A program made the position numbers and the translations under genes. From NCBI GenBank assembly GCA_020528935.1, contig JAJDFU010000095.1:1-33973 (forward strand): a stretch of 33,973 bases of DNA, read 5' to 3'. Positions 4,135-31,919 of the stretch are shown here, piece after piece (position 1 is the stretch's first letter; each line of letters opens with the position of its first letter). The notes below the pieces were generated by a model. That model did no database searches. It worked only from the letters and a program-made list of their open reading frames with translations, and was not told the DNA's origin. Source of the DNA: Saprospiraceae bacterium (GTDB taxonomy: Bacteria > Bacteroidota > Bacteroidia > Chitinophagales > Saprospiraceae).

Positions 4135-4792
4135 TCGCCTCTTTTTCAGTTTGATCGTCATTTTCATACTCTTGGCATCGGCCGGGCTGGCCGTATGGGA
4201 ACACGGAGAGGCCATTTTGCTGTTCAGCGGACATCGCAGTCCGTTCTGGAACGAGTTCTTTCGCGTGGCCAATACCTTTGGCGAAGAGCCCGCTTTCGTG
4301 CTGGCCTTTCTTTTTCTCCTTTTTGTGGGGTATCGCTATGCCGCGGGTGTGCCCCTGCTGGCCGGGGCAGCCACCCTGCTGGCTTTTGGCGCCAAAAGCT
4401 TGTTTGGCAGGCCTCGGCCCATGGCGTACTTCCGGGAAGTTGACCGCTGGCACGAAGTGGTTCCCGTGGAGGGCGTCGCTGTGCACAGCGGGCTGAATAG
4501 CTTTCCCTCTGGACATACCCTGGCGGCCTTTGCGCTGTTCACCTATCTGGCCCTGGTCGTTCCCCGAAAGCAGGGCACTGCGCTGCTGTTCTTTCTCCTC
4601 GCCTTGAGCGGCGGCCTGGCGCGCATTTATCTGGTCCAGCACTTCCTGGAAGACGTACTGGCCGGCGCCGTACTGGGCGTTTTGCTGGGCTTGGCGGCCT
4701 ATCTCCTGCTCCGGCCCACTGCAGGGCGGAAGAGCTGGTGGGACGGCAGCCTCGGCCAGTGGAACCTATCGGCATTCAAATCCAAGGCATGA
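4112..4792 (+). CDS. PAP2-family phosphatase (phosphatidic acid / undecaprenyl-PP phosphatase type)
   Basis: The three PAP2 motifs are present: KSLFGRPRP, PSGH and ARIYLVQHFLEDV. It is a polytopic membrane protein and overlaps the upstream permease gene by 23 nt. Confidence 0.8.
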   Translation: MRQLWWANRLFFSLIVIFILLASAGLAVWEHGEAILLFSGHRSPFWNEFFRVANTFGEEPAFVLAFLFLLFVGYRYAAGVPLLAGAATLLAFGAKSLFGRPRPMAYFREVDRWHEVVPVEGVAVHSGLNSFPSGHTLAAFALFTYLALVVPRKQGTALLFFLLALSGGLARIYLVQHFLEDVLAGAVLGVLLGLAAYLLLRPTAGRKSWWDGSLGQWNLSAFKSKA

Positions 4793-5343
4793 AGCCGCTC
4801 GTCCCGGACATCCGAACCGAGCGCCTGTTGCTGCGCGAGCTCAATCCGGGGCTGTCGGATTGGCTTTTTCATCAGGCAGATCCCGAGGAGCAGCAGCGCT
4901 TTTTCGGCTGTGCGTCCAGGGAGGCCCTGCACGGACAAGTCCGGCGTTTTCGCGACAGCCTGGTCAGTAATGCCCGCTTTTCCTTTCGCCATTGGCTTTT
5001 GGTACAGGCTGAAGACGGAACCGTGATCGGCGATGCGGGGTATCACACCTGGCACATACAGCATGCACGCGCCGAATTGGGCTATGGGCTGCGCAGCGAG
5101 GAATGGGGGGGGCGTGGATTCATGAGTGAGGCGTTGGAACGCATCCTCCAGCTGGGTTTCGGCGACATGGATCTGTACCGGGTAGAAGCTTTTGTGAGCC
5201 CCTACAACCGGCCTTCCCTGGCCATTCTACACCGCCTGGGTTTCGAACGGGAGGGCTGCCTGCGCGGGCACTTCCGGGCCAATGGGCGCCAAAACGACGC
5301 CTGGTGCTATGCCCTGCTTCGGCCCCAGTGGGCATCCAGGTGA
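4789..5343 (+). CDS. GNAT-family N-acetyltransferase (RimJ/RimL-like)
   Basis: TERLLLREL near the N-terminus and the GRGFMSEALERIL...GFEREG core are typical of RimJ/L-type GNATs. The start is set at ATG 4789, which forms an ATGA overlap with the PAP2 stop. The track ORF begins at 4738, inside the PAP2 gene. Confidence 0.8.
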   Translation: MKPLVPDIRTERLLLRELNPGLSDWLFHQADPEEQQRFFGCASREALHGQVRRFRDSLVSNARFSFRHWLLVQAEDGTVIGDAGYHTWHIQHARAELGYGLRSEEWGGRGFMSEALERILQLGFGDMDLYRVEAFVSPYNRPSLAILHRLGFEREGCLRGHFRANGRQNDAWCYALLRPQWASR

Positions 5344-5391: not shown

Positions 5392-6915
5392 TTACTTCAC
5401 CGTTTCGATCTCGCCGGTTCGGATCTTTTGGATGTACTTCCGGAGTTCTTTGCGCACATCGGGCAGCAAGAAGAGCAGACCGATCATATTGGGCACGACC
5501 ATGGCGAAGATCATAGCATCCGAAAAACCGATGACCGCATCCAGGCTGGCGGCGCTGCCTACAATGATAAACAGGCAAAAGAGGATCTTATACACGGTAT
5601 CTGTGACCTTACTGCGGCCAAAAAGGTACATCCAGCTCTGCAGGCCGTAGTACGACCAGGAAAGCATGGTCGAGAAGGCGAAGAGCACTACGGCTATGGT
5701 GAGCACATAGGGGAACCAGGGAATGACGTCGGCAAAGGCGGCGGAGGTGAGGTCCACCCCGCTGATGGAGCCATCGGTCTGGTAGTTGCCGGTTATTGTT
5801 GTACCCCTGCCGGTCTGCTTGCAACGCGTCTGGTGTTCAATGAAGGGTGCCAATAGGCCATCCAGGCCCGACATGGCCTGGGTCTCGGGTTGGACGGCCG
5901 AGGGCGCGATGGCGGCAGATCACAGCCCGGCCTCATGCGACAAGGCCGCCCGCCGAAAGCCCTTGACCAGCACCCCGACGATGCCGCCGGCTATGCCCTG
6001 CCCGGTAAAGGCGCCGTTGAAAATCTTTCCGAAGGCATCGGGCACCTGGCCCAGATTGGCGAAAATGATGACCAGGGCAGCTAGCACATACACCCCGCAC
6101 ATGAAAGGGACGACCCGTTCGGTCACCAGGCCGATGCGCTTGATGCCGCCGATGATGACCAGAGCGACCATTACGGCCAGAATAAGGCCGAAGATCAGCC
6201 CGGAACTTCCCCCCTGGATATTGAACATGTCAATGAATTGCTGGGCAGCCTGATTGGCCTGAAACATATTGCCGCCCCCGAAACTGCCTCCAATACACAT
6301 GATGGCGAAAAGTACGGCCAGGATCCGCCCCAGCCCGGCATAGCCCTTTCCGGCCAGGCCGCGGGAAAGGTAGTACATGGGGCCGCCGTACACCGTGCCG
6401 TCCGGGCCGATATCGCGGTACTTTACTCCGAGGGTGCATTCGGTGAACTTGGAGGCCATACCGAGCAGCCCGGCGGTGACCATCCAAAAGGTAGCGCCGG
6501 GCCCGCCCAGGGAGATGGCCACGGCCACCCCGGCGATATTGCCCAGCCCCACCGTGCCGCTCAGCGCCGCGGTGAGTGCCTGAAAGTGGGATACCTCGCC
6601 GCTTTCATTGGGATCCGAATACTTGCCCCGCACCGTATCGATCGCGAGCTTGAAATTCCGGAATTGCACAAACCCGAAATACAGGGTGAAAAACGTGGCG
6701 CCCAAGAGCAGCACAATAACGACGATCGGCAGGGCAGTGGCGTCGGTTTCTCCAAAGTTGATGGGGTAAAAAACGATCTTTTCCACCATTTCGGTGATGG
6801 GCTGAACCGTTTCGTTAATGCGCTGGTCCAATCCTTTGGGTTCTTCGTTTTGGGCCAGGCCCAGGAGGGGAAGGAGGCCGGCCATAAAGGTACCCAACAG
6901 ACGACGATTGATCAT
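5392..6915 (-). pseudogene. Alanine/glycine:cation symporter (AGCS family) interrupted by a single in-frame TGA
   Basis: Track ORFs 5920..7191(-) and 5392..5874(-) are in the same frame. Translating across the gap gives ...RRAALSHEAGL*SAAIAPSAVQPETQAMSGLDGLLAPFIE..., which matches the conserved AGCS block SNEAG-L-G-SAAIAH with TGA (5920-5922) in place of Gly. Other family motifs are FQALTAALSGTVGLGNIAGVA and GGPGATFWM. The start is set at MINRRLL (ATG 6913-6915). Confidence 0.85.
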
Positions 6916-7147
6916 GCTCGCTTGCTTTCGGAGTGTAGGGAATAGAAAACCCGAGGTGAAGGCGGGGCCAACTCCGGCTATGCCAAGCCCGTCGAGATGG
7001 CCCAGAAGCCAGATCCGGAGGGCGTGATCAGCCCGGCGATCACCGGGCGCCACACTGGCCGAAGATCGACGATCACAATCCACTTCGACCTCGGTAAAAT
7101 GGACGTTAAGGTATTTTTTTATTTTTACTTGGTCAAAGAAAGCGAAA

Positions 7148-7155
7148 TAATTTTG
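7148..7155 (+). promoter_or_regulatory. Candidate -7 promoter box (TAATTTTG) upstream of the ECF sigma gene
   Basis: Exact TAnnTTTG match in an AT-rich stretch, 51 nt upstream of ATG 7207. A TTG lies at 7129-7131 with a 16-nt spacer. Confidence 0.3.
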
Positions 7156-7206
7156 GAGCCGGTCGCCGAGGCCATTCCCCGATCCGCCCATCGCTCAGAA
7201 TGCTAC

Positions 7207-18665: not shown

Positions 18666-20159
18666 CTACCGGCGACGGATCTTTTTCCACCACTGCAGCA
18701 ACAGCTTGTTGACCTCCGGCGACACCTGCAGATAGAGCACCGGCGGGAAAAAGAGCAGGGCAAAGAGGCCGCTGCGCAATACAATGTTGAGCAGTGGGAT
18801 CCCGCTGGCCGGCAACAGGTACACCAGCCCGCCGGCCAGCGCCGCCAGTGCGATCAGCAGGGCGGTATGCCCGGAGAAGGGATGGAGGCCCAGCCGCAGC
18901 CAGAGGTACCCGCCCCGCAGCAGGTTGAAGCTGGTGATGGCTATAAACGAAGCCAGGGCCGCGCCCTGAATGCCCATGCGCGGAATGAAGAAGTAATTGA
19001 GCAGGACATTGACCACGCCCAGCCCCAGCACGGCATACAGGTTGAAGCGATAGTGACTCGAAAAGGCAATGATCTGTCCGTTCACGCTGAAGGCCATGTC
19101 CACCAGCTTGCCCGAGCCGATGAGTACGACCACCCAGCTGGCCGCCTTCAGGGTTTCGTACTTGGCCGTGAGCCGGAAGAGGTCGTCCAGGTTCAGGACT
19201 ATGGCTCCGAAGACGAACAGCCCGAAGATGAGCAGGTTGATGGAGGAGCGCTTGTAAATGTGCTCGATCTCCCGGGTGTTGCCCTCCGTCCAGGCCTTGG
19301 CAATGATGGGGCTGGCGATGGCGTATATGGAACGGGTGGGCATTTCAATGGCGTTGCCGATGAACTGGCCGATGCCGTAAATGCCAGTATTGCTCAGATT
19401 GGTCAGGGTGGAGATCATGATGTGATCCAGCTGAAAGGCGAAAATGCTGCCCACCTGACCCAGCATGCCGTACAGTCCGTAGTGGGTCATTTCGCGCAGC
19501 TGGCCGGAGCGCCACACCGGCGACCTCGCCTTCAGGCGCAGCTCGCCCAATTGCCAAAGGTACCACAGCATGCCGATCACGATGAGTCCTTCCATGATCA
19601 AAATGCCGGCGATGTATTCCTGCAGGCCCAGAAAACCGGCCCAGGATAGAAGGATAAGTATGGGAAGTGCTATTTTTGGCCACAGGTTTTTGAAAATGCC
19701 CGGCACCACAATGCGGTGAAAGTTGCTGATGTAGTTGCCCAGCAGGGTGTACAACAACAGCAGAAAGGTAAAAAGGAGGATGACGGGCAGGTAGGTGTCG
19801 ATCAATCCGGCATTGGGAAACTGCAATTGCCCCAGCAGGCGCAGCAGCGCTTCTCTGCCCAGCACAAGCAGGAGGGCGAACACACTGAAGAAGATCAACA
19901 CCGCTCCGAGCAGGAAGCTCAGAAAACCCCGATGCCCGGTTTCGGGCTCGCGAAAGGCCGGAAAGTAGCGTATGGCCACTGCTCCCAGGCCGAGCGAGGC
20001 AAAGGGCATGAAAAAATTGGCCGTGCTGTACAGGAACAAAAACAAGCCGTAGCGCGCCTCCTCCAGGGGGTACACAAACAAGATGCTCAAAGCACCGATC
20101 CCTGCGGCCGCGTAGTTGACCACGGTTTGCTTGATGCCTTGCCGTTGGATAATGCCCAT
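18666..20159 (-). CDS. Polysaccharide biosynthesis protein / oligosaccharide flippase (MOP superfamily, Wzx-like)
   Basis: About 14 predicted TM helices. The N-terminal IKQTVVNYAAAGIGALSILFVYPL and overall layout are typical of Polysacc_synt flippases. It is divergent from the pse operon. The start is set at MGIIQRQG (ATG 20157-20159). Confidence 0.8.
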   Translation of the reverse strand: MGIIQRQGIKQTVVNYAAAGIGALSILFVYPLEEARYGLFLFLYSTANFFMPFASLGLGAVAIRYFPAFREPETGHRGFLSFLLGAVLIFFSVFALLLVLGREALLRLLGQLQFPNAGLIDTYLPVILLFTFLLLLYTLLGNYISNFHRIVVPGIFKNLWPKIALPILILLSWAGFLGLQEYIAGILIMEGLIVIGMLWYLWQLGELRLKARSPVWRSGQLREMTHYGLYGMLGQVGSIFAFQLDHIMISTLTNLSNTGIYGIGQFIGNAIEMPTRSIYAIASPIIAKAWTEGNTREIEHIYKRSSINLLIFGLFVFGAIVLNLDDLFRLTAKYETLKAASWVVVLIGSGKLVDMAFSVNGQIIAFSSHYRFNLYAVLGLGVVNVLLNYFFIPRMGIQGAALASFIAITSFNLLRGGYLWLRLGLHPFSGHTALLIALAALAGGLVYLLPASGIPLLNIVLRSGLFALLFFPPVLYLQVSPEVNKLLLQWWKKIRRR

Positions 20160-20198
20160 AGCTTGAAGCCCTGATTCGCCCGCTGCATGCCAGCCGGG

Positions 20199-20206
20199 CA
20201 AAAGTA
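20199..20206 (-). promoter_or_regulatory. Candidate -7 promoter box (TACTTTTG on the minus strand) for the flippase gene
   Basis: The plus-strand sequence CAAAAGTA is the reverse complement of TACTTTTG, an exact TAnnTTTG match. It lies 40 nt upstream of the flippase ATG, in the 70-bp divergent spacer. Confidence 0.25.
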
Positions 20207-20229
20207 CGCATTGAAACACAGACCAGGAC

Positions 20230-21264
20230 ATGATGGATTTGAACGGGAAGTCGATATTGATCACAGGAGGAACGGGCTCTTTCGGCAAAGCATTTGTCGC
20301 GCGCATTCTTCAGCAGTTTCCACAGGTCAGGCGCCTGGTGATTTATTCCCGGGACGAACTCAAGCAGTTTGAGATGGCACAGCGCTTTTCGCCCCGCGAG
20401 CACAAGGCCCTGCGTTATTTCATCGGCGACATTCGCGATGGAGATCGCTTTCGCCGGGCCTGCGAGGGCATCGAGATCATCGTGCATGCCGCAGCCCTCA
20501 AGCAGGTGCCCACCGCCGAGTACAATCCCTTTGAATGCATAAAGACCAATGTGCTGGGCGCGCAAAATGTCGTGGAGGCTGCTCTGGACTGCGGCGTGAA
20601 AAAGGTCGTGGCGCTTTCGACGGACAAAGCGGCGGCCCCCATCAATCTGTACGGAGCCACCAAGCTGTGCTCGGACAAGCTCTTCATCGCGGCCAATAAG
20701 ATGAAAGGGCAGCGCGACCTCACCTTTTCCGTGGTGCGCTACGGCAACGTGATGGGTTCCCGCGGCTCGGTCATTCCCTTTTTCCTGAACAGGCGCAAGG
20801 AGGGCGTCCTGCCCATTACCGATCCGCGCATGACGCGCTTCAACATTTCCCTGGAGGAAGGGGTGGACCTGGTGGTCCATGCGCTGGGCCACGCCTGGGG
20901 CGGCGAAATTTTCGTGCCCAAGATTCCCTCCTACCGCATCACGGATGTGGCCGAAGCCATCTGCCCCCATTGCGAGCACCGGGTGGTGGGCATCCGACCC
21001 GGCGAAAAGATCCATGAGGAGATGATCACCGAAGCGGATTCGCACACCACCGTGGACCTGGGCAAGTACTACGCCATTCTGCCGCAGCTGCCCCACTGGT
21101 CGCTGGAGGACTACCTCAAAAAGACGGGAGCCAAACCCGTGCCGGCCGGATTCAGTTATAATTCCGGCACCAACGACGAGTGGCTGACCGTGGACCAGAT
21201 TCGGGAACTCATCCGGCTGCATGTAGATGCCGCATTTACCGTTGAACCCTCGCGCGTATCATGA
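20230..21264 (+). CDS. pseB: UDP-N-acetylglucosamine 4,6-dehydratase (inverting), PseB
   Basis: ILITGGTGSFG, IVHAAALKQVP, ECIKTNVLGAQNV, ALSTDKAA.PINLYGATKLCSDKLF and VRYGNVMGSRGSVIP match PseB/FlaA1 along the full length. Confidence 0.92.
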   Translation: MMDLNGKSILITGGTGSFGKAFVARILQQFPQVRRLVIYSRDELKQFEMAQRFSPREHKALRYFIGDIRDGDRFRRACEGIEIIVHAAALKQVPTAEYNPFECIKTNVLGAQNVVEAALDCGVKKVVALSTDKAAAPINLYGATKLCSDKLFIAANKMKGQRDLTFSVVRYGNVMGSRGSVIPFFLNRRKEGVLPITDPRMTRFNISLEEGVDLVVHALGHAWGGEIFVPKIPSYRITDVAEAICPHCEHRVVGIRPGEKIHEEMITEADSHTTVDLGKYYAILPQLPHWSLEDYLKKTGAKPVPAGFSYNSGTNDEWLTVDQIRELIRLHVDAAFTVEPSRVS

Positions 21265-22439
21265 AAAAAATACCCTACGGACGCCAGCATATCACCGAGG
21301 AGGACATCGAGGCCGTCGTGGAGGTACTGAAGTCCGACTTTCTCACACAAGGGCCGCGCATTGGCGCTTTCGAGCAAGCCTTTGCCGAATACGTGGGTGC
21401 CCGCTATGCCGTGGCGGTCTCCAACGGCACCGCCGCCCTTCACCTTTGCGCCCTGGCGCTGAACGTAGAACCCGGCCAGAAGGTCATTACCAGCCCCATC
21501 ACCTTTGCCGCCTCGGCCAATTGCATTCGCTATGCCGGGGGAGAGGTCGTCTTTGCCGACATCGATCCGGAAACGATCCTGTTGGACCTGGACAGGACGG
21601 CCGCCCTGCTGGAGTCTGCGCCCCGGGGTACCTATGCCGGCATCATACCGGTAGATTTTGCGGGCTATCCCGTGCAAATGGATGCCTTCCGGCAACTGGC
21701 CGATGCCTACGACCTCTGGATCATCGAGGATTCCTGCCATGCGCCCGGCGGCTCCTATGCCGATGCCCGGGGCGAGATCCAGCGCTGCGGCAACGGCGCC
21801 TATGCCGACCTGGCCATTTTTTCCTTTCATCCGGTAAAACACATCGCCAGCGGCGAAGGCGGCATGATCACCACGAACCGCAAAGACCTCTACGAGCGCC
21901 TCCAGTTTTTGCGTACCCACGGCATCACCAAGCGCGAAGACCTGCTGGCCGAAAACCACGGCGGCTGGTACTACGAGATGGTGGAGTTGGGCTACAACTA
22001 CCGCCTGACCGACATCCAGGCCGCCCTCGGCCACAGCCAGCTCAGCCGGGCGGAAGACGGACTGGCCCGCCGCCGGGCCATCGCCGGGCGCTACGACGAA
22101 GCCTTCGCCGAAACCGCCGTGCAGACCATCGCCCCGGCGCCCGGTTTTCACCATGCCTACCATCTGTACGTCATCCAGGTGCCGGACCGCGGGGGCCTGT
22201 ACGAGCACCTGCGCCAAAAGGGCATCTACGCCCAGGTGCACTACATTCCGGTCCATCTGCAGCCCTACTACCGGCGGTTCGGCTGGAAAAAGGGCGATCT
22301 GCCCCATGCCGAGACCTATTACGAGCATTGCCTGAGCCTGCCTATGTATCCGACCCTTGCGCCGGAAGAACAGGACTATGTCATTGAAGAGGTACTCGAC
22401 TTTTTTAGCTTAGCGCCTGCCGCTCGAACGGAGGCGTAA
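21261..22439 (+). CDS. pseC: UDP-4-amino-4,6-dideoxy-N-acetyl-beta-L-altrosamine transaminase, PseC
   Basis: IPYGRQHITEEDIEAVVEVLKSDFLTQGPRIGAFEQAFAEY..., the DegT/DnrJ/EryC1 fold and SFHPVKHIASGEGG (PLP lysine region). There is an ATGA overlap with pseB. Confidence 0.92.
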   Translation: MKKIPYGRQHITEEDIEAVVEVLKSDFLTQGPRIGAFEQAFAEYVGARYAVAVSNGTAALHLCALALNVEPGQKVITSPITFAASANCIRYAGGEVVFADIDPETILLDLDRTAALLESAPRGTYAGIIPVDFAGYPVQMDAFRQLADAYDLWIIEDSCHAPGGSYADARGEIQRCGNGAYADLAIFSFHPVKHIASGEGGMITTNRKDLYERLQFLRTHGITKREDLLAENHGGWYYEMVELGYNYRLTDIQAALGHSQLSRAEDGLARRRAIAGRYDEAFAETAVQTIAPAPGFHHAYHLYVIQVPDRGGLYEHLRQKGIYAQVHYIPVHLQPYYRRFGWKKGDLPHAETYYEHCLSLPMYPTLAPEEQDYVIEEVLDFFSLAPAARTEA

Positions 22440-22460: not shown

Positions 22461-23345
22461 ATGCACGATATTGTCAAAAATGAATTCGGATTTTATGAGG
22501 TCGCCGAAAAACCGAGCCCCGAGGCCTTGAGGGCGTACTACACCGAGAAGTATTACCAGAACGCAAAGACCGATACGTATTCGAGGGCTATTACCGAGGA
22601 GGAGAAGATCTACAAGTACAACAAGGTAGAGCAGCGGTTCCGCTATCTGGAGAACAAGGTGGATGCCGATTTTGAGGAAAGTCCGGCCTTCCTGGATGTC
22701 GGATGCGGAGAGGGCTTTGCCCTTCATTACTTCAAGCAAAGAGGTTGGTCCGTAACGGGTTTGGAGTACAGCTCCTATGCCTGTTCTTTTTTTCATCCGG
22801 ATTGTTGCGACGATCTGATAACCGGCGACATTGCGGAGAATCTCTCCGATCTGGCCGATCGCCGGGATGTGTACGACCTGATCTGGTTGGACAACGTACT
22901 GGAGCACGTCAGGGATCCGCTGCAGCTGCTGAATCAGGTGCGCCAACTGGGCTGTTTTTTGGTTGTGGAAGTGCCCAACGATTTTTCACCGCTTCAGATG
23001 GCTTTGTTGGAAGCGGGAAAAATTGACCGGGAGTTTTGGGTCAGCCTGCCGGACCATCTTTCGTACTTCAACAAAGAAGGCTTGCTCAATATAGCGGAGC
23101 AGTCCGGCTGGAAACCGGTCGGCGTTTTAGCTGATTTTCCGATCGACTGGTTTTTGGCCAACGATCATTCCAACTACGTCGAGAACCGAACGGTGGGCAA
23201 GCAGGCCCACTACGCCCGCGTAGCGATCGACCTGCTCATGCACGAAGAGTCCGTCGCCAAAACCAACCGCCTGTACGAAACCCTGGCCGATCTGGGAATG
23301 GGCCGGCAGATCGTAGCCTTCCTGGAAAATCCGGAAATTGCTTAG
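22461..23345 (+). CDS. Class I SAM-dependent methyltransferase embedded in the pse operon
   Basis: SAM motif I LDVGCGEGFAL, the acidic loop (GLEYS), and post-I/II motifs (DLIWLDNVLEHVRDP). It sits between pseC and the cytidylyltransferase gene. Confidence 0.8.
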   Translation: MHDIVKNEFGFYEVAEKPSPEALRAYYTEKYYQNAKTDTYSRAITEEEKIYKYNKVEQRFRYLENKVDADFEESPAFLDVGCGEGFALHYFKQRGWSVTGLEYSSYACSFFHPDCCDDLITGDIAENLSDLADRRDVYDLIWLDNVLEHVRDPLQLLNQVRQLGCFLVVEVPNDFSPLQMALLEAGKIDREFWVSLPDHLSYFNKEGLLNIAEQSGWKPVGVLADFPIDWFLANDHSNYVENRTVGKQAHYARVAIDLLMHEESVAKTNRLYETLADLGMGRQIVAFLENPEIA

Positions 23346-23346
23346 G

Positions 23347-24192
23347 TTGAAAACTGCTTGCATCATACAAGCCCGCATGACCTCCAGCCGCCTTCCGGGC
23401 AAGGTCCTTCTGCCGCTTCCCTACGGGGGCTCGGTGACGGCACTGGAGCAGGTGTTGCGTCGGGCCGGGGCCTGTGGGCGCATCGATCAGGTGGTGGTAG
23501 CCACTACTACGAATCCCGAAGACGATGCCATCGAGGCGCTGTGCCGGGCAAAAGGGCTTTCGTGCTTCCGGGGCAGTGAGCACCACGTGCTGGAGCGCTT
23601 CTGGGGTGCTGCGAAATCCGTACAGGCCGATCGCATTGTGCGCGTCACGGCCGATTGCCCCTGCCTCGATCCCGCCATCCTGGACCGGGTGCTGGTGGAG
23701 CACGAGCGGGAAGAGGCCGACTTCACCTCGAGTGGCATCCGCCGAAGCTTCCCGATCGGCATCGACCAGGGGGTGTTTTCCTTTGAGATGCTGGAAGCGG
23801 CTTACCGGAATGCCCGCCATGCACACGAACGCGAACACGTGACCCCGTATTTCTACCAAACGCACCCGGAGCGGTACAAGATCCACATCGTTGCCGCCGA
23901 ACCGGAAGAGCACCGGCCCGAACTCCGCCTGACCCTGGATACGCGGGCCGATTACCTCATGCTCTGTGCCCTGTACGATCAGCTGTACTCCCGGGACGAC
24001 CTCTTTCGCCTGCCCAGCATCCTCGCACTCCTGGATCAAAAAGGATGGATTGCCGGAATCAACGCGCAAACGGTGCAAAAGCGCATCTATTCCAGTCTGG
24101 AGGAAGAGCTGCATGCGCTTCGAGCATGGGCAGACCGGCAAGACCTGCACCGCGCGCTTGCCTTTTTGAATACGCATATTTCCAATTCATGA
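23347..24192 (+). CDS. SpsF-type cytidylyltransferase, probably filling the CMP-pseudaminic acid synthetase (PseF) role
   Basis: ACIIQARMTSSRLPGKVL is the SpsF/acylneuraminate-cytidylyltransferase-like N-terminal motif; VRVTADCPCLDP and EHVTPYFY are also present. No ATG precedes the motif, so candidate starts are TTG 23347 (MKTACIIQAR) or TTG 23338. Confidence 0.8.
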   Translation: MKTACIIQARMTSSRLPGKVLLPLPYGGSVTALEQVLRRAGACGRIDQVVVATTTNPEDDAIEALCRAKGLSCFRGSEHHVLERFWGAAKSVQADRIVRVTADCPCLDPAILDRVLVEHEREEADFTSSGIRRSFPIGIDQGVFSFEMLEAAYRNARHAHEREHVTPYFYQTHPERYKIHIVAAEPEEHRPELRLTLDTRADYLMLCALYDQLYSRDDLFRLPSILALLDQKGWIAGINAQTVQKRIYSSLEEELHALRAWADRQDLHRALAFLNTHISNS

Positions 24193-25238
24193 TGGAAGTC
24201 TTCCTGCTTGCGGATGCTCACCACCGGATCGGGACCGGCCATGTGACCCGTTGCCTTTGGCTGGCCGAAGCGATACGCGAACGGAGAGGAAGGGCCTGCT
24301 TCCTGTTGCGCGAATCGGCCCGTTTTGCCCGGGAACGCGTTGAGGCCGAGGGGTTTCCCGTCCTGCTGGTTCCGGACGAACAACTGGATGATGCCGGAAC
24401 CTTGCTGGACCAGGTAAAGCGCCGGGCGGAAATGGCAAACCCCTGGATGCTCACCGATGGTGATGAAGCCGGATGGTACGAGCTCGATTTTCAACGGGCG
24501 ATCCGGTCTGCGGGGGTCCGTCTGATGATGATCGTATTCCCCATCGAAGGGCGCTTTGAGGTGGATATCCTGCACAATCAAAACCCCCGTTCACTGGATC
24601 ACACCTACGAATTGCTGCCCGACACGCGATTGTTGGCCGGCCTGGAGTATCTGATCCTGGCCCCGGTCTTCCGCAACTCGAGCTGGAAGCCGCCGGAAAA
24701 GGCGATCCGGACGGTTTTCGTCAATTTCGGAGGAGCCGATCCCCAGGATCAGACGATCCGGGTCTGCCGGCTGCTGAACGATCGCTTTCCCCAATGGACC
24801 CAGATTGTGGTCGTCGGAGGCCTGTACAACCACAGAGCAGCGCTGGAAAAAACACTGAAGGCGAAAACCGAGGGTCCGCCTTCCCGCCTGTATCAAAACA
24901 CACCCGCTATGGCCGAGCTGATGCGCGAGGCCGATCTGGCCATTACTGCGGGAGGATTGACGGCCTGGGAGCTGGGCATCCTCGGAGTGCCCAACGTCGT
25001 GCTCCCCGGTTCCGAACGCGAGCGCCTGACAGCCGACTATCTGGCTGAGCGGGGAAAGATCTTTTTTCCCGGTCCGGCCCGGGAGGTGACGGAGGATGAC
25101 CTTTGCCGGCTGCTCGCCCTGCTGGAAAAAGAGCCGGAGCGGCGGCAACGCCAATCCAGGGGGCTGTTCGAGTTGTTAAATCCCCAGGGAATTGAACGCG
25201 TAGTGGATGCCCTTTTTGAGATGCATTCGCCCAACTGA
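24189..25238 (+). CDS. pseG: UDP-2,4-diacetamido-2,4,6-trideoxy-beta-L-altropyranose hydrolase, PseG (GT28-like)
   Basis: N-terminal RIGTGHVTRCLWLAEAI and C-terminal ADLAITAGGLTAWELGILGVPNVVLP are typical of PseG/SpsG. There is an ATGA overlap with the upstream gene, and it sits between the cytidylyltransferase gene and pseI. It is 349 aa with no fused GNAT domain. Confidence 0.8.
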   Translation: MMEVFLLADAHHRIGTGHVTRCLWLAEAIRERRGRACFLLRESARFARERVEAEGFPVLLVPDEQLDDAGTLLDQVKRRAEMANPWMLTDGDEAGWYELDFQRAIRSAGVRLMMIVFPIEGRFEVDILHNQNPRSLDHTYELLPDTRLLAGLEYLILAPVFRNSSWKPPEKAIRTVFVNFGGADPQDQTIRVCRLLNDRFPQWTQIVVVGGLYNHRAALEKTLKAKTEGPPSRLYQNTPAMAELMREADLAITAGGLTAWELGILGVPNVVLPGSERERLTADYLAERGKIFFPGPAREVTEDDLCRLLALLEKEPERRQRQSRGLFELLNPQGIERVVDALFEMHSPN

Positions 25239-25252
25239 AAAATAACCAAGCT

Positions 25253-26302
25253 ATGCCCGGTTTCAAGATCGGTGGCCGACCGATAGGAGATGGACATCCC
25301 GTTTTTATCATCGCCGAGCTTTCCGCCAACCACAACGGCGAATTCGAGCTGGCCAGAAAGACCATCGCTGCTGCAAAAGAAGCAGGGGCGGACGCCATCA
25401 AACTGCAGACCTACACCCCCGATACCATCACCCTCGACAGCGATCTGCCGCATTTTCGCACCCGGGAGGATTCGCCCTGGGCCGGGCAAAAACTCTACGA
25501 CCTGTATGCCAAAGCCTACACGCCCTGGGAATGGCACGAGGCGCTGCGCAATTTTGCCCGTGAATTGGGGCTGATCTTCTTCTCTTCGCCCTTTGACCCC
25601 ACCGCCGTCGATTTACTGGAAGACCTGGATGTGCCGGCCTACAAAGTAGCATCCCCGGAGATCACGGACATTCCCCTGATCCGCTACATCGCTTCCAGGG
25701 GCAAGCCCGTCATCCTCTCCACGGGCATTGCCCGCGAAGACGACATTGCGCTGGCCCTGGACGCGTGCCGGGCAGCGGACAATGAGCAAATCGCCCTGCT
25801 CAAGTGCACCTCGGCCTATCCCACACCGCTGGAGGAGGTCAACCTGGCCGCGCTGCCCCTGCTGCGCGAGCGCTACGGGGTCGTTCCCGGCCTGTCGGAC
25901 CACACCATGGACGTGGTCGTGCCCGTGGCGGCGGTGGCGTTGGGGGCAAAGATCATCGAAAAACACCTCATCCTGGACCGCGCCCTGGGCGGGGTGGACA
26001 GTTCCTTTTCCCTGAACGTGGACGAGTTCCGGGAAATGGTGGAAGCCGTTCGCAAGACCGAGCTCGCCCTCGGTCGCCCTTCCCTGGAGCCCTCTCCCCG
26101 TCAGCTCAAAGGCCGGCGGAATGCCCGTTCGCTATTCGTTGTCCAAACGATTGAGGCCGGGGAGGCGATTACGCGGGCAAACGTGCGATCGGTACGGCCG
26201 GGTATGGGCTTGCATCCCAGGTACTTTGAGGAAGTGCTGGGGAAGAAAGCCCTGCGGCGGCTGGAAAAAGGCACCCCGCTGCAGTTGGCGGACCTTTCGT
26301 AG
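25253..26302 (+). CDS. pseI: Pseudaminic acid synthase, PseI (NeuB family)
   Basis: FIIAELSANHNG...AGADAIKLQTYTPDTITLD, FSSPFD..AVDLLEDLDVPAYKVASPEITDIPLIRYIA..GKPVILSTG, LLKCTSAYPTP and a C-terminal SAF domain. Confidence 0.92.
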   Translation: MPGFKIGGRPIGDGHPVFIIAELSANHNGEFELARKTIAAAKEAGADAIKLQTYTPDTITLDSDLPHFRTREDSPWAGQKLYDLYAKAYTPWEWHEALRNFARELGLIFFSSPFDPTAVDLLEDLDVPAYKVASPEITDIPLIRYIASRGKPVILSTGIAREDDIALALDACRAADNEQIALLKCTSAYPTPLEEVNLAALPLLRERYGVVPGLSDHTMDVVVPVAAVALGAKIIEKHLILDRALGGVDSSFSLNVDEFREMVEAVRKTELALGRPSLEPSPRQLKGRRNARSLFVVQTIEAGEAITRANVRSVRPGMGLHPRYFEEVLGKKALRRLEKGTPLQLADLS

Positions 26303-26303
26303 A

Positions 26304-27599
26304 TCAACCGTCCACGCTGGTATCCAGTAGGTAGGAATCGAGATCAAAACCCTCCCTTTTCAGGCTCTGGCCCGACTCGTCCAGAAAATCAATGGCCTCC
26401 ATGGCTGCCCGGAAGGCCTGGTGGCACTGAGCAGGGGTATCTCCTGCGGTCACTATGTAGAAAAAGCGATCGCCCCCGTGCCGCAGCGGGGTAATGTGGG
26501 GAAGGCCGGAATGATGCTGAAAATAATCGGCCTCCAGCACCCCTTCAATTGCCAGGGCTTGGTCCTTCCCCTTCAGCTGGGCGACGTGGCCCTCTTTTAA
26601 CGGCCCGGGGTAAGCGTTGAGGAAAGATATGATCCCCGCCGGATAGGAAGGCAGCGTCCGGTAGCTTTCATAGGCCTTCACCTCGCCCAGGCAGATATCC
26701 AGATAAAAGGCGGTGAGGTCGATCCCGCTGGCATGTTCCATCAGCCTATTCATGACACCCCCGGGGATCCGCACGCCGATCTCCAGAAACACCAATTGCT
26801 GATCGCCCTCCATGATGAATTGCGGAAAGACGATGGCGTGCTCCAGTTCCAGCGCGCTCACCAGCTGCCGGCACTTTTCCCGGACGGCACGCTCTATGCG
26901 GTCCTCGTAGCGCGACGGGTACAGGTGTCTTTTGACCAGGCCGAAAGATTCCCTGTCCTTCATGCGGTCGGAGATGATCAGATCCCTGATCTGACCGTTG
27001 TAAACCGTGAATACGGCATTGATCTCCGGCCCTTCCGCGAACCGCTCCAGGATGACCCTTCCCTGGTAGGCTTGTCCCACCGATTGTTGAAAACGATCTT
27101 CCAGTTCGTCCATGTTCCGGATTTTGAACAGCCCGGTTTGTCCGCCCGTATCACTGGACTTGATGACCAGGGGAAAGCCGGTTTGGCGGGCAAATGCCCG
27201 GGCTTCCGCCAGGCTGGTGGGGTGGGCATAGGGAAGGTCGTTGATCCCGGTTTCGGTGAAGATCCGCCGCATCTCGATCTTGCTCAGGCTCGCCTGTACG
27301 CTGTTCAGATTAAAGGTGGGCAGCCCCATCCGGCTGGCCGTGTAGTACATGGAGTACAAGCCGGATTCGGTGATCATGGAAGTGATGGCATCAATGCCCT
27401 CCCGGTGCGCATAGGCGGCGATCTTTTCGTGATCGCGCGTGCTGGCCAGCAGAAACCCATCGGCCAGTGCTCTGCCCGGCGATTCGGGATTGCCGTCAGC
27501 AAGGAGGGTGTGGTAGCCCCGGGTTTTACACCTTGCGATCATGGGCAGCTGTTCCTTGCCACCTCCCAGTACCAGTACTTTTTTTGATGCGTCGGGCAT
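26304..27599 (-). CDS. ATP-grasp domain ligase (carboxylate-amine/thiol ligase superfamily)
   Basis: Pre-ATP-grasp Rossmann segment KKVLVLGGGKEQLPMI, the ATP-grasp core (FPLVIKSSDTGGQTGLFKI...VILERFAEGPEINAVF...FLEIGVRIPGG), and a C-terminal extension of about 100 aa. It is the last gene of the comA operon. Confidence 0.85.
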   Translation of the reverse strand: MPDASKKVLVLGGGKEQLPMIARCKTRGYHTLLADGNPESPGRALADGFLLASTRDHEKIAAYAHREGIDAITSMITESGLYSMYYTASRMGLPTFNLNSVQASLSKIEMRRIFTETGINDLPYAHPTSLAEARAFARQTGFPLVIKSSDTGGQTGLFKIRNMDELEDRFQQSVGQAYQGRVILERFAEGPEINAVFTVYNGQIRDLIISDRMKDRESFGLVKRHLYPSRYEDRIERAVREKCRQLVSALELEHAIVFPQFIMEGDQQLVFLEIGVRIPGGVMNRLMEHASGIDLTAFYLDICLGEVKAYESYRTLPSYPAGIISFLNAYPGPLKEGHVAQLKGKDQALAIEGVLEADYFQHHSGLPHITPLRHGGDRFFYIVTAGDTPAQCHQAFRAAMEAIDFLDESGQSLKREGFDLDSYLLDTSVDG

Positions 27600-27609
27600 A
27601 TGCGTTGAG

Positions 27610-28137
27610 CTAAAATTTCAGAATGATCAGCTTGTTGTTCGGCACCTCAAAGGCATTCATCCTGGCGATGTTGCCGTACCGGTGAATGGCCAGAAGGCCG
27701 CGGGTGACCGCGCCGTGACCGAAGGCGAGCAGCTTGTCGCAATGGCGGTATTTTTTGAGCAGCTCAAAGAGCCGGTCCTGGAAGCCGGATAGCGGTTCGC
27801 CCAGGGTGAGCTCGAGCGCGTTTTCCTGCCAGGAGGGCGAGGTTTCGGCGATCAGCTTGTCCTTGGGCTGCCCCTCGTAGGGGCCAAAGTCCAGCTCATT
27901 CAGTAGGGGCTCCGGCCTGCCTGGCGAATAGCCGTACAGCGTTGCCGTTTCCCGCGTGCGCTTGTACTGGCTGGTCAGTACGTAATCGAAAACCACAGCG
28001 TCCAGCACGGCCTTATTGGACTGCACGGCTTCCAGTACTTCCGCCGTGGGCGGAAGGATGCCGATGTCCTTTTTGCCCTGCAGAATGCGCCGCTGGTTCC
28101 AGGAGGTCGGCAGGTGGCGTATGAGGTACCAGTTCAT
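27610..28137 (-). CDS. Histidine phosphatase superfamily protein (phosphoglycerate-mutase-like)
   Basis: N-terminal catalytic LIRHLPTSWN (an RH-x5-N block with Leu where RHG has Gly), the second Arg region (YKRTRETA) and C-terminal FGHGAVTRGL (HG). It is short at 175 aa. There is a 1-nt gap after comA and a 10-nt gap before the ATP-grasp gene. Confidence 0.75.
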   Translation of the reverse strand: MNWYLIRHLPTSWNQRRILQGKKDIGILPPTAEVLEAVQSNKAVLDAVVFDYVLTSQYKRTRETATLYGYSPGRPEPLLNELDFGPYEGQPKDKLIAETSPSWQENALELTLGEPLSGFQDRLFELLKKYRHCDKLLAFGHGAVTRGLLAIHRYGNIARMNAFEVPNNKLIILKF

Positions 28138-28138
28138 A

Positions 28139-28888
28139 TCAGGTGTTCATATCAAAGGTTTCTTTGCGCAGTCCCTGCCGCTGGGCTTCCAGGACGAGCA
28201 CACCCTGGGGAGCAATGTTGCCGAGATTGACGTTGGCGCCCACCTGATTGATGAAGAACATCTGGGCCTGGGGGGTGGGCGCTTCGAAAATGAGCCAGTC
28301 AGCACCGACCTCCTTGATGATGTCGGCCACCAGTCCGGTGCGGATCTCCCCGGACTGCCGATACACCCCGGCGGTGCCGGAATTGCGGCCCTCCGTGATC
28401 ACGTAGGTACTGCCGGCAGCACGAAGGCTCTTGATTTCGCGTATCCACTGGCTGGGCGGCATGATCTTTTCGGCGTCCTTGCTGCCCACTTCCGACAAAA
28501 CCTCAAACTCGCCGGCGAAGCGCTCAATGAGGCGCACCCGCTCTTCGAGGCTGATGTCGATCGAGCCGGCCGAAATTTCTACCGTGCGGACCCCCAGGTC
28601 GCGAACAAAGGCCATGTAGTCGTCTACCTTGCCCTGAATGTAAAATTTTTCGAACAGGGTGCCGCCCAGATAGACCTTTACATCCATGCTGTGATACAGT
28701 TCGACCTTCTTTTTGACGTTGGGCATGACGTAGGCCGTACCCACGCCCAGCTTGGCATAGTCAATGAACGAATGAAAATCGTCGAGGATATGCCGGAGCT
28801 CGCCGACTGAACAGCTCACGTCGTACAGGGAGGTGAGGCCGGTCGAACGCGGCTTTTCCGTGCGGATAGGAAGTTGAAGGGTGCGCAT
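28139..28888 (-). CDS. comA: (2R)-phospho-3-sulfolactate synthase, ComA family
   Basis: Collinear with archaeal ComA across the whole length: FIDYAKLGVGT, KVYLGGTLFE, VRTVEISAGSIDISLEER, LSEVGSKD, YVITEGRNSGTAG, LIFEAPTPQAQ and VNLGNIAPQGVLVLEAQRQGLRKETF. The start is set at MRTLQLP (ATG 28886-28888); the 737-aa track ORF is an artefactual upstream extension. Confidence 0.9.
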   Translation of the reverse strand: MRTLQLPIRTEKPRSTGLTSLYDVSCSVGELRHILDDFHSFIDYAKLGVGTAYVMPNVKKKVELYHSMDVKVYLGGTLFEKFYIQGKVDDYMAFVRDLGVRTVEISAGSIDISLEERVRLIERFAGEFEVLSEVGSKDAEKIMPPSQWIREIKSLRAAGSTYVITEGRNSGTAGVYRQSGEIRTGLVADIIKEVGADWLIFEAPTPQAQMFFINQVGANVNLGNIAPQGVLVLEAQRQGLRKETFDMNT

Positions 28889-29079
28889 GCGGGAAAGAGA
28901 TTTGGAAAGAGGCGAAAATAGGGATATTTGGGAATCGAGCCACGCGCGAGAGGATTCGGGACGTTGTGGCTTCCGTACGCCGGCCAGGGGCGGTCTGCCG
29001 CATTTCCGGTGTTCCTGCGTTTTCGAAAGGGCTTTGCTCCGGTAAAAATCACGCGATGGGGGTACCGGTCCTGCTTCCG

Positions 29080-29087
29080 TATATTTG
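29080..29087 (+). promoter_or_regulatory. Candidate -7 promoter box (TATATTTG)
   Basis: Exact TAnnTTTG match ending 8 nt before ATG 29096, the same geometry as at 2517-2524. Confidence 0.3.
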
Positions 29088-29095
29088 CGCATTCT

Positions 29096-30604
29096 ATGAG
29101 GATCCTGTTCTATTCCATTCAGGGCTTGTCGCCCTTTCACTTCGGCACGGAGCTGGAGATCATGACCCGTTTGCAGGAAGAGGGGCACGAAGTGCACGTG
29201 CTGGCCTGCAATCAGGCCCTGGACAGTTGTTTTTTCAACCCCTGCCACAACCTGCTGGGCTGTGCCATCTGCCAGGGGCGCACCGATACGTTCTTGAAAA
29301 AGATCGGAATACCGGCTGAGCGGATCCACTACCTGACCGATCATTCCGCCGACGGTCCGGATACCGAATTGGCCTTCGGGGACCTGGACGAATTGCTCCG
29401 GCTGGATGTGGACGGCCTGGAGATCGGGCGGGGAGTGGCCTCTTCGGCCATTTCCACCTTTCGGGATTACCAGCTCACCGACCAGGCCGACAAGAGCGAA
29501 TACCTGGCCGTTCAGTGGCGCATGGCCCGGCAGGTACTGCGCGACTTCGGCCGGCTGGCCCAACAGCTGCAGCCCGACCGGGTGTACCTCTTCAACGGGC
29601 GCTTTGCCGAGTATTTCCCGCTGGTGGAATACTGCCGAAAGCACGGCATTGACTACGTTACCCACGAACGGGGCAGCACCTATCAATCGTATGCCTTGTA
29701 CCCCAACAGCCTGCCCCACAGCATCACCGTCCGCCAAGGGCGCATAGCTGAACACTGGGCAGCCGCCGACCCCGAAGGGCGGGAGCGCATTGGCAGGCAG
29801 TGGTTTACCCGGCGGCGAAAAGGCGTTCTGCCCGACGCCAAGAACTTCGCCCGGGAACTGGCGACAGGGACCATGCCCGAAGGTTTCGATCCCGACCATA
29901 TAAATGTGGCCGTATTCAACTCCTCGGAAGATGAAATGAAGGCCATAGGAGAATGGCAAACGCCCCTGTATCGCCACCAAAACGAGGCGATCCGCAACAT
30001 ACTCGAGGGCTTCCGGGGGCGTCCCGGCGTGCATATCTACCTGCGAATGCACCCCAACCTCCGGGGCGTGGACAACGTGCAAACGCAGGAACTGTACGAG
30101 CTGGATTACCCCTACCTGACACTCATTCGCCCCGAGGAGCGCATCGATACCTACGCCCTGCTGGAAGCCTGCGACAAAACGATCAGTTTTGGATCCACCG
30201 TCGGCATAGAAGCCACCTTCTGGGGGCGTCCGTCCATTTTGTTCGGCAAGGCGTTCTACGATCAGCTGGATGCGGTGTATCGCCCCCGGTCGGTAGACGA
30301 ACTGATCGGACTCGTGCTGGACCCGGGCCTCCCGCCCAAGCCCTGCGCACACACCCTGCCCTACGGCTATTTCCTCAGCACCTTCGGCCGGCCGTTCCGG
30401 TATTTACAGTATCGCGACAAACACCATGCACAATTCATGGGGAAGCCCATGCGGCGCATTCACGCCGCCACCCTGTGGCGCTTTCTGCAATACCTGCCCC
30501 GCCTGGGCTGGTGGAACCGGATGAACCGGCTCATTTTTGGTCGCTCTATTACCTGGCGGGATATTTTCAAGCTCAAGTCACATACCGTTGAAAAGATCGG
30601 CTGA
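29096..30604 (+). CDS. Capsule_synth (KpsS/KpsC)-like protein, putative CMP-ulosonic-acid-dependent glycosyltransferase
   Basis: HIYLRMHPN (an HP motif) and CDKTISFGSTVGIEATFWGRPSILFGKAFY resemble the C-terminal nucleotide-sugar half of KpsS/KpsC-type proteins. An N-terminal Cys cluster reads CNQALDSCFFNPCHNLLGCAIC. The family call comes from motif memory only. The start is set at MRILFYS (ATG 29096). Confidence 0.55.
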   Translation: MRILFYSIQGLSPFHFGTELEIMTRLQEEGHEVHVLACNQALDSCFFNPCHNLLGCAICQGRTDTFLKKIGIPAERIHYLTDHSADGPDTELAFGDLDELLRLDVDGLEIGRGVASSAISTFRDYQLTDQADKSEYLAVQWRMARQVLRDFGRLAQQLQPDRVYLFNGRFAEYFPLVEYCRKHGIDYVTHERGSTYQSYALYPNSLPHSITVRQGRIAEHWAAADPEGRERIGRQWFTRRRKGVLPDAKNFARELATGTMPEGFDPDHINVAVFNSSEDEMKAIGEWQTPLYRHQNEAIRNILEGFRGRPGVHIYLRMHPNLRGVDNVQTQELYELDYPYLTLIRPEERIDTYALLEACDKTISFGSTVGIEATFWGRPSILFGKAFYDQLDAVYRPRSVDELIGLVLDPGLPPKPCAHTLPYGYFLSTFGRPFRYLQYRDKHHAQFMGKPMRRIHAATLWRFLQYLPRLGWWNRMNRLIFGRSITWRDIFKLKSHTVEKIG

Positions 30605-31919
30605 CAAGAAAAAGGTGCTCGTCATTACTTATTACTGGCCGCCCTCCGGCGGCATCACCGTGCTGCGCTGCCTCAAGATCGTGAAATACCTGCGCGACTT
30701 CGGCTGGGAGCCGGTGGTGTATACGGCCGAAAATGCGCATTATCCCTCCCTGGATCCCTCCAACCTCCGGGACATCCCCGAGGGGCTGGAGGTTATCCGT
30801 GGCAGGATCTGGGAGCCCTACGCCCTCTACAAGAAATTTACCGGGCAGGCCCGGGAAGCCAATGTCAACAACGTCTTTTACACCTCGGAGGAGGAGCAGG
30901 GAGCTGCCCACAGACTGGCCGTATGGATCCGCAGCAATTTTTTCATTCCCGATGCCCGAGCCCGCTGGATTCGGCCTTCGGTACGCCGCCTGATGCAGTA
31001 CCTGAAAGAGCATCCGGTAGATGCCCTGTTCTCGGACGGTCCTCCCCATACCAATACCCGTATCGCGACCTTGATCAAGCAAAAGACCGGTATACCCTGG
31101 CTGGCCGACTTCCAGGATCCCTGGACGCAGGTAGATTACTATCAGCTCCTTCGCCTCATGCCCTGGGCAGATCGCAAACACCACCGCCTGGAACAGGAGG
31201 CGTTTGCCGCAGCCGACAAGATCACCATCGTCAGCCCGACCTGGCGCGAAGAGCTCATGGCGCTCGGCGCACAGAACGTGTCGGTCATTCCCTGGGGATT
31301 CGATCCCGACGATTTCCCCCCAACGCCCGTCCGTCCGCCCGCGTCCTTTTCCCTGGCGCACATCGGCATTATGGGATACGACCGCAACCCCCGGCAGCTT
31401 TTCCGGGCTCTGGCCCGCCTGAAAACGAACTACCCGGCCCTGGATCAGGAGCTGGAGCTGCGTTTTGCCGGGCAGATCGATCACTCTGTGCGGGCTTCCC
31501 TGGAGGAAGCGGGGCTGGCGCCCCATCTTCATTTTCTGGGCACGGTGCCCCGCGAGGAAGCCCTGCAACTGGCCCGGGAATCTGCCGTTCTGCTTTTGCT
31601 CATCAACCAGCAGCCCAATGCGCAGGGGCGCATTCCGGGCAAGGCCTTCGAGTACCTTGCGGCCCGGCGGCCCATTCTCAGCCTGGGCCCTCCACATGCC
31701 GACGTCTCGCGCATGATCGAGGAGGTGTGTGCGGGGCGCGGCATTGCCTACGAGGCAGAAGACGCCCTCTACCGGCAGTTGGAAGAGTGGTATTTGCAGT
31801 ACCGCGCCGGTCGCCTGCAGGCGCCGCTGGACACCTCCATCGAGCAGTACTCCATCCGAAACCTCACCAGGCGCATGGCCGGCTTCCTGGATGAGATCGC
31901 TGTGCATGCCGATGCCTGA
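30588..31919 (+). CDS. GT-B fold glycosyltransferase (GT4-like)
   Basis: N-terminal KKVLVITYYWPPSGG, and C-terminal GRIPGKAFEYLAARRPIL (an EX7E-type region). There is no in-frame ATG before the conserved N-terminus, so candidate starts are TTG 30588 (MKRSADKKKVLVI), GTG 30615 or TTG 30537. Confidence 0.75.
   Translation: MKRSADKKKVLVITYYWPPSGGITVLRCLKIVKYLRDFGWEPVVYTAENAHYPSLDPSNLRDIPEGLEVIRGRIWEPYALYKKFTGQAREANVNNVFYTSEEEQGAAHRLAVWIRSNFFIPDARARWIRPSVRRLMQYLKEHPVDALFSDGPPHTNTRIATLIKQKTGIPWLADFQDPWTQVDYYQLLRLMPWADRKHHRLEQEAFAAADKITIVSPTWREELMALGAQNVSVIPWGFDPDDFPPTPVRPPASFSLAHIGIMGYDRNPRQLFRALARLKTNYPALDQELELRFAGQIDHSVRASLEEAGLAPHLHFLGTVPREEALQLARESAVLLLLINQQPNAQGRIPGKAFEYLAARRPILSLGPPHADVSRMIEEVCAGRGIAYEAEDALYRQLEEWYLQYRAGRLQAPLDTSIEQYSIRNLTRRMAGFLDEIAVHADA

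Follow-up and report, generated by a model that had tools for sequence, protein, structure and literature searches.

We analyzed three adjoining genes, encoding a homologue of the (2R)-phospho-3-sulfolactate synthase ComA, a small histidine phosphatase, and an ATP-grasp ligase, in a Saprospiraceae bacterium (assembly GCA_020528935.1, contig JAJDFU010000095.1, positions 1 to 33,973; this whole stretch of 33,973 nucleotides (nt) is called the window). We propose that the trio forms a cassette that makes a sulfonated acyl group and attaches it, here as a tailoring of pseudaminic acid (Pse), and we give the full mechanism a probability of roughly 0.6. The proposal starts from the protein families, the conserved gene order, and the absence of PseH, all of which were observed, and predicts the chemistry of the pathway from them. 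Pse that carries a 3-sulfolactyl group on N7 is the most likely product, because the window-type ligase is specific to pse operons and no pseH is visible in those that bear ComA.

The genes lie on the minus strand in the order ComA (28139..28888, 249 aa), histidine phosphatase (27610..28137, 175 aa), and ATP-grasp ligase (26304..27599, 431 aa). According to the list of open reading frames (ORFs) of the window, 1 nt (28138) separates ComA from the phosphatase and 10 nt (27600-27609) separate the phosphatase from the ligase, in agreement with the packing given in a preliminary description of this DNA. A Pfam search likewise returned the three families named there, namely ComA (PF02679), His_Phos_1, and ATP-grasp. 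The length of ComA is counted from the ATG that opens MRTLQLPIRTEK; the mechanically called ORF extends farther upstream only for want of an intervening stop codon. Third-position GC of the three ORFs is 0.72-0.80, like that of the neighbouring genes. The ligase gene converges on pseI of the plus strand, with 1 nt between the two stop codons. The whole locus recurs in four metagenome contigs, whose proteins are 79-95% identical to those of the window (87-94% for the trio), and the trio was also found in unrelated genomes at 41-60% identity. Because the arrangement recurs in this way, it is not due to chance.

The ComA homologue matched PF02679 with 271 bits (cut-off 25, E 9e-81), its residues 9-242 covering model positions 3-242/243. 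The closest structures in the Protein Data Bank (PDB) were Bacillus subtilis YitD (1u83, E 4e-48, 39% identity) and Methanocaldococcus jannaschii ComA (1qwg, E 3e-38, 41% identity). Alignment revealed that every block common to these two enzymes is kept in the window protein, including the Lys of EVGsK, which we take to be Lys137, the proposed general acid. The invariant blocks are D..K.G.G, GGT.FE, E.S.G, E.G.K, G...I.E.R, IFEAP, G..VN..N, and LE..R.GLR..TF. The motifs listed in the preliminary description (GGTLFE, VEISAGSIDISLEER, ITEGRNSG, IFEAP, and LEAQRQGLRKETF) were all found in the translation, and the loss of catalytic residues that it had named as fatal to its idea was not seen, as the conserved blocks are all present. 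ComA proteins linked to a phosphatase gene were 46-60% identical to the window protein and clustered with it in a neighbour-joining tree. This group includes the ComA of Cytobacillus suaedae, encoded beside cysH-sat-cysC, and lies apart from YitD; the clade is separate from both characterised enzymes, with approximately 40% identity to each. The window protein belongs to the ComA family, and its activity on sulfite and phosphoenolpyruvate (PEP) is predicted from that membership. A metagenome scan with ComA returned four short contigs, which added nothing.

The second gene encodes a branch 1 histidine phosphatase, the proposed phosphosulfolactate phosphatase. It matched PF00300 with 74 bits (cut-off 22, E 2e-20) and no other Pfam family, which places it outside the ComB family by sequence; a function shared with ComB would be a case of non-orthologous replacement. 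The RH...HG signature noted earlier corresponds to residues 7-8 and 150-151. In an alignment of nine ComA-linked phosphatases, the motifs RH, R..TA, E..G..EG, and HG...R were invariant, as was the catalytic set of R7, H8, the R of KRTRETA, the E of NELDFG, and H150. The protein scored below the cut-off of every NCBIfam equivalog model, the best being CobC (TIGR03162, 71 bits against 163), and these scores rule out its assignment as phosphoglycerate mutase or CobC. The nearest solved structure was a 177-aa phosphatase of Thermus thermophilus (E 6e-10). Homologues are common in Bacillaceae. The association with ComA is limited to the closer subfamily, since no ComA lies near a farther homologue in Ca. 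Venteria (41% identity). The suggestion that this enzyme substitutes for ComB gained ground from gene context: it adjoins ComA in eight of nine independent glycan-locus contexts, and again in an operon of C. suaedae that lacks the ligase.

The third gene encodes a carboxylate-amine ligase of the LAL/PurT-like type, the proposed sulfolactate:amino-sugar ligase. Its Pfam matches were CPSase_L_D2 (43 bits, cut-off 20) and LAL_C2 (29.8 bits, cut-off 29.4). An AF2 model (pLDDT 84), which has the three-domain fold of such ligases, was searched with Foldseek, and the top folds were 4dim, RizA, PurK, YwfE/BacD, and PurT. Residues K147, E185, E192, N194, E273, and R277 do not vary within the family. 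It is a rare one, with 100 clusters (E<=1e-30) in a collection of 1.84 billion representatives. All seven distinct contexts of ligase homologues were pse operons, and the window-type ligase is specific to such operons. The carboxylate and amine substrates are deduced from gene context. ATP-grasp genes adjoin ComA in nine of nine independent glycan-locus contexts and come from two ligase families; in addition, a metagenomic protein (P0267) joins a full-length phosphatase (44% identity) to the ligase (43% identity) in one chain. These observations support the earlier idea that the ATP-grasp enzyme is the attaching enzyme. In another metagenomic protein (P0272, 620 aa), a Bac_transf sugar-phosphate transferase domain is naturally fused to an ATP-grasp of the window family (38% identity), which is a second tie of the ligase family to glycan assembly.

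The pse genes of the window are encoded on the plus strand. pseB, the UDP-GlcNAc inverting 4,6-dehydratase (20230..21264; TIGR03589, 528 bits, cut-off 408), is followed by pseC (21261..22439; TIGR03588, 476 against 424), whose aminotransferase product makes the 4-amino group that becomes N7 of Pse. The UDP-sugar hydrolase gene pseG (24186..25238) scored barely above its cut-off (TIGR03590, 154.3 against 153.6), and the pseudaminic acid synthase gene pseI (25253..26302) well above (TIGR03586, 481 against 340), so that all four exceed their equivalog cut-offs. A CMP-nonulosonate synthetase of the CTP_transf_3 family (23338..24192; PF02348, E 7e-28) takes the role of PseF. The PseF model was missing among its NCBIfam matches (E<=0.01), KdsB-like models matched weakly, and its position is conserved in three related loci (L001, L015, and L019); the PseF homologue of Tannerella forsythia is reported to score similarly low, at 37 bits.

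No GNAT, and hence no PseH, was found within the pse locus. The only GNAT of the window (4738-5343) is approximately 15 kb away, with unrelated genes between, and was rejected as PseH (18 bits against a cut-off of 93 for TIGR03585; RimJ-like). Among the approximately 28 window ORFs scanned against Pfam, none matched the ComB, ComC, or ComDE families or those of the bacterial xcbC-E genes. With comB through comE absent from the window, a coenzyme M (CoM) pathway is excluded, as the preliminary description had argued.

Related loci were collected by tracing eight homologues from three protein searches to their contigs and by adding two loci from a genome scan, giving ten informative contexts; the genome scan used an alignment of four ligase sequences and returned four loci. 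In a metagenome-assembled genome (MAG) of Saprospiraceae and another of Bacteroidota, wzx is followed by pseB, pseC, pseF, a methyltransferase gene, pseG, ComA, the phosphatase, the ligase, and pseI on one strand. In Rossellomorea aquimaris AcN35-5 (Bacillota; L020, NZ_JAIVAR010000002.1, positions 467309-488454), flagellin and two Maf-type (MptE-like) genes precede pseB, pseF, pseG, ComA, the phosphatase, the ligase, pseI, and pseC; flaG, fliD, fliS, and fliT then follow, forming a flagellin glycosylation island. The trio thus lies between pseG and pseI, without a PseH-like gene, in all three genomes, and the co-occurrence with pse genes that the preliminary description had called for is present in them. 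A Peptococcaceae MAG (JACDOK010000055.1, L019, 1-7609) has the order pseB, pseI, pseG, ligase, ComA, pseF. None of the ComA-bearing pse operons examined contained a PseH-like gene.

Five polysaccharide loci without pse genes, in three Bacteroidota-type contigs, Flavobacteriaceae MAGs, and a Burkholderiaceae MAG, carry ComA and the phosphatase adjoining an ATP-grasp of a second family. These second-family proteins are 27-55% identical to one another and have no BLAST-level similarity to the window ligase, and a DegT aminotransferase gene lies within 9-10 kb in four of the five loci. Across the related loci, the trio genes are 1-10 nt apart or overlap, and no other candidate attaching enzyme is common to the ComA glycan loci. 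The cassette was found in surface-glycan loci of three bacterial phyla, and all nine contexts are glycan or flagellin-glycosylation loci, as would follow from the surface-glycan role first put forward. One polysaccharide locus (L009, 1-8840) also encodes a second, PylC-like ATP-grasp with a HAD hydrolase, LicD, a CDP-alcohol phosphatidyltransferase, a nucleotidyltransferase, an FGGY kinase, and an aldolase, which looks like a separate tailoring module.

Two contexts connect ComA and the phosphatase with sulfur metabolism. C. suaedae has a ComA-HisPhos-cysH-sat-cysC operon without ligase or glycan genes (L027, 10567-13074), and the ComA-phosphatase pair of the Burkholderiaceae MAG lies beside cysNC, cysD, cysQ, and TauE (L026, 13761-18732). 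These neighbours link the pair to sulfite supply. The Cytobacillus operon is what an operon leading from sulfite to free sulfolactate should look like; as it lacks a ligase, it therefore argues that the phosphatase acts on free phosphosulfolactate.

In the mechanism that we propose, ComA would condense PEP and sulfite to (2R)-phospho-3-sulfolactate, and the histidine phosphatase, in the place of ComB, would remove the 2-phosphate to give free 3-sulfolactate. The ATP-grasp ligase would then activate the sulfolactate carboxylate as an acyl phosphate and transfer it to the 4-amino group set by PseC on UDP-4-amino-4,6-dideoxy-beta-L-AltNAc, doing the job of PseH. PseG, PseI, and the CMP-synthetase would convert the product to CMP-Pse5Ac7(3-sulfolactyl), and a BFO_1060-like transferase, a GT4 enzyme, and Wzx, all encoded in the window, would place the modified Pse on a surface glycan. 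In the polysaccharide loci, the second ligase family would attach sulfolactate to other amino sugars. By our own calculation, the sulfolactyl-Pse residue would have a mass of 426.09 Da, compared to 316.13 Da for Pse5Ac7Ac, with a further 14.02 Da if the methyltransferase of the pse operon modifies it. PurT, one of the folds closest to the ligase, couples a small acid to an amine on a sugar phosphate, which we count in favour of the proposal. We regard as evenly balanced the wider reading that 3-sulfolactate is a previously unrecognised building block of surface glycans and that a mobile ComA-phosphatase-ligase cassette N-acylates amino sugars with it. This joint reading holds that, in the pse operons of both Bacteroidota and Bacillota, flagellin islands among them, the ligase replaces PseH and the target is N7 of Pse, and that the second ligase family acts on other amino sugars in polysaccharide loci of Bacteroidota and Proteobacteria.

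Several points weigh against the cassette proposal. PseG, PseI, and the synthetase might not tolerate a bulky anionic N-acyl group, and acylation may take place on either the UDP-sugar or CMP-Pse. The window ComA scored 215 bits against the archaeal equivalog TIGR03849, a model built for archaeal CoM enzymes, below its cut-off of 280. The P0267 fusion is known from a single 14-kb contig and could be a one-base assembly error, conceivable because the phosphatase and ligase genes normally abut or overlap. In the 7.6-kb Peptococcaceae contig, a phosphatase gene was not seen; it may be located in another part of the genome, or the phosphate may be retained, or removed by another route, in this variant. 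Ligase orthologues also occur in two pse operons without visible ComA: L016 contains the ligase and a PseH-like GNAT, with no visible ComA or phosphatase, and L013, a contig only partly visible, contains the ligase and no ComA within the visible part. Because of these orthologues, the ligase family is not tied to sulfolactate alone. A comparison of ComA-linked with ComA-lacking ligases brought out only conservative differences at hydrophobic or small residues, and no Arg, Lys, or other candidate for sulfonate binding that would set the two groups apart.

One alternative is that the ligase and the sulfolactate genes are neighbours and not partners. The ligase would put another acid, such as an amino acid, glycerate, or lactate, on Pse, and the free sulfolactate would go to another use, be it as a solute, in spores, or for attachment by some other enzyme. 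We consider this unlikely. The pse operons with the ligase and without ComA or phosphatase (L016, and L013 as far as visible) agree with it, as do the ligase-free ComA-phosphatase pair of C. suaedae, the L-amino-acid-ligase C-terminal domain (LAL_C2) on the ligase, and the lack of residues that tell ComA-linked ligases from others. Against mere neighbourhood stands the presence of an ATP-grasp gene next to ComA in every one of the nine glycan-locus contexts, drawn from two families without BLAST-level similarity. The 1-10 nt gaps or overlaps and the phosphatase-ligase fusion also argue for partnership, and the loci share no alternative candidate for attachment.

A second alternative concerns ComA itself, which might use a nucleophile other than sulfite, or make a sulfur-free 2-hydroxy acid, so that the product would resemble the Pse5Am7Gra of T. 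forsythia. 2-Phosphoglycerate is already a central metabolite, and a dedicated PEP-hydrating enzyme would be unnecessary. The score below the archaeal equivalog cut-off and the separate clade, with approximately 40% identity to each characterised enzyme, leave room for a changed substrate, yet the blocks common to M. jannaschii ComA and YitD are all conserved. Members of the clade also lie in the cysH-sat-cysC operon and beside cysNC, cysD, cysQ, and TauE, which points to sulfite. A 7-N-glyceroyl Pse does exist, with its genes unidentified (PMC5378307). On balance, we find a sulfur-free product very unlikely.

Attachment of sulfolactate in another manner (with its 2-hydroxyl as the nucleophile in a VanA-like ester-forming reaction on a sugar carboxylate, or with phosphosulfolactate ligated first and dephosphorylated afterwards) also has little probability: some ATP-grasp enzymes, the D-Ala-D-Lac ligases, do take a 2-hydroxy acid as nucleophile, the nearest characterised relatives of the phosphatase are of the CobC type, which acts on a late assembled intermediate in the last step of cobalamin synthesis, and the Peptococcaceae contig has no phosphatase, but without PseH a free amine remains, and the canonical pathway can continue only once this amine is acylated, and the ligase-free Cytobacillus operon points to a phosphatase acting on phosphosulfolactate itself.

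The proposed N-acylation cassette resembles parts of several known systems. It shares its first enzyme family with the sulfolactate branch of CoM synthesis and with B. subtilis YitD-YitC (ComA and ComB), along with the logic of joining PEP to sulfite and then dephosphorylating to sulfolactate. The window differs from the CoM branch in having a histidine phosphatase instead of ComB, no comC, comD, or comE, and a ligase in a glycan setting, and its ComA, unlike YitD, belongs to the phosphatase-linked clade. With the canonical PseB-C-H-G-I-F pathway of Campylobacter, Helicobacter, and T. forsythia (PMC5378307), it shares pseB, pseC, pseG, and pseI, whereas the ComA-phosphatase-ligase trio stands where PseH would be expected. 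As in T. forsythia, the locus is flanked by wzx and, at the opposite side, by a BFO_1060/Tanf_01245-like transferase gene. The authors of the T. forsythia study called the origin of the Am and Gra substitutions of Pse a major challenge (PMC5378307).

The nearest known case of a sulfonated bacterial glycan is that of the type B flagellin of Clostridioides difficile, in which a taurine-containing peptidylamido group is carried on Fuc3N and the ATP-grasp CDR20291_0245 is genetically required (PMC5207245, PMC5207246). There too, an amide bond joins a sulfonate-bearing group to an amino sugar of a surface glycan, and an ATP-grasp is needed, but taurine is part of a short peptide and not a 2-hydroxy acid, Fuc3N is not a nonulosonic acid, and no ComA is involved. 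PurT, RizA, and YwfE/BacD, the solved folds closest to the window ligase (Foldseek probability 1.0, TM ~0.6), form amides from carboxylates and amines through an acyl phosphate. The window ligase is only 15-19% identical to them, and for it we propose a sulfonated hydroxy acid and a nucleotide-linked amino sugar as substrates.

The pse genes and the trio are flanked on both sides by glycan genes, which accords with the flanks described earlier (flippase, nonulosonic-acid genes, and glycosyltransferases). A Wzx-like flippase is encoded on the minus strand at 18666..20306 (Polysacc_synt, 29.7 bits), with its true start probably near 20159; the corresponding gene call in L001 is 497 aa. On the other side, 207 bp of divergent intergenic sequence (28889..29095) separate ComA from a putative nonulosonic-acid transferase of 502 aa (29096..30604, plus strand; Capsule_synth/BFO_1060-like, PF05159, 26 bits, cut-off 20). 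This length, obtained with the start at 29096, agrees with the gene call in L001. With the BFO_1060_trans model NF046086, the protein scored 31 bits against 200 over model positions 197-292 only, which indicates resemblance and not membership, and a PDB sequence search with it gave no match. TATATTTG at 29079-29086 on the plus strand, 10-17 nt upstream of the ATG, fits the Bacteroidota -7 promoter element, whose consensus we take to be TAnnTTTG. The transferase gene is followed by one for a GT4 glycosyltransferase (30537..31919, plus strand; Glyco_trans_4_4, Glyco_transf_4), and then by a second methyltransferase gene and one for a YfhO-like protein. In T. forsythia, the BFO_1060/Tanf_01245 family is required for transfer of a Pse or Leg derivative to the O-glycan (PMC5420450).

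The pse operon also contains a gene for an S-adenosylmethionine (SAM)-dependent methyltransferase (22461..23345, plus strand; Methyltransf_23/11/12). Orthologues with 45-46% identity are present in the pse operons of the Saprospiraceae MAG (L014, 5673-6566) and the Bacteroidota MAG (L017, 6719-7561), and none was found in the Rossellomorea pse locus. This enzyme could act on the sulfolactyl 2-hydroxyl or on Pse itself. In other parts of the window, a sodium:alanine symporter is split into two minus-strand ORFs, 5392-5874 and 5920-7191, which cover Pfam model positions 8-226 and 245-388, a pattern suggestive of a frameshift, pseudogene, or sequencing error. Approximately 1.1 kb between ftsZ and lptF/G (1443-2532) have a GC content of 0.50, compared to approximately 0.59, and contain no convincing ORF, and neither a tRNA nor an Rfam family at gathering score was found there.

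Each of the enzyme families, sulfolactate synthesis, and the Pse pathway are already known. In a full-text literature search, with subscription journals outside its coverage, no paper was found for 'sulfolactyl', for sulfolactate combined with nonulosonic acids, or for phosphosulfolactate synthase combined with pseudaminic acid. Spelling variants of the sulfolactate terms brought up no glycan literature, and such a decoration is not described in the papers in which ATP-grasp and pseudaminic acid appear together. The search thus turned up no characterised sulfolactyl-modified glycan, in line with what had been remarked from the start. Taken together, the findings suggest that a nonulosonic acid undergoes N-acylation, in itself a known kind of tailoring, and that the new elements are the donor pathway and the type of enzyme that performs the acylation.

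A cultured strain, R. aquimaris AcN35-5, carries the cassette, and the cassette may be of use in glyco-engineering for placing a permanently anionic group on glycans. If the proposal is true, an acyl group with a carbon-bonded sulfonate would join the known N-acyl decorations of nonulosonic acids and, unlike sulfate esters, would resist sulfatases. With the ligase, a reaction driven by ATP could take the place of the PseH step, which depends on acetyl-CoA. The ComA family would gain a role beyond CoM synthesis and Bacillus spores, and the histidine phosphatase would be the missing ComB equivalent in many bacteria.

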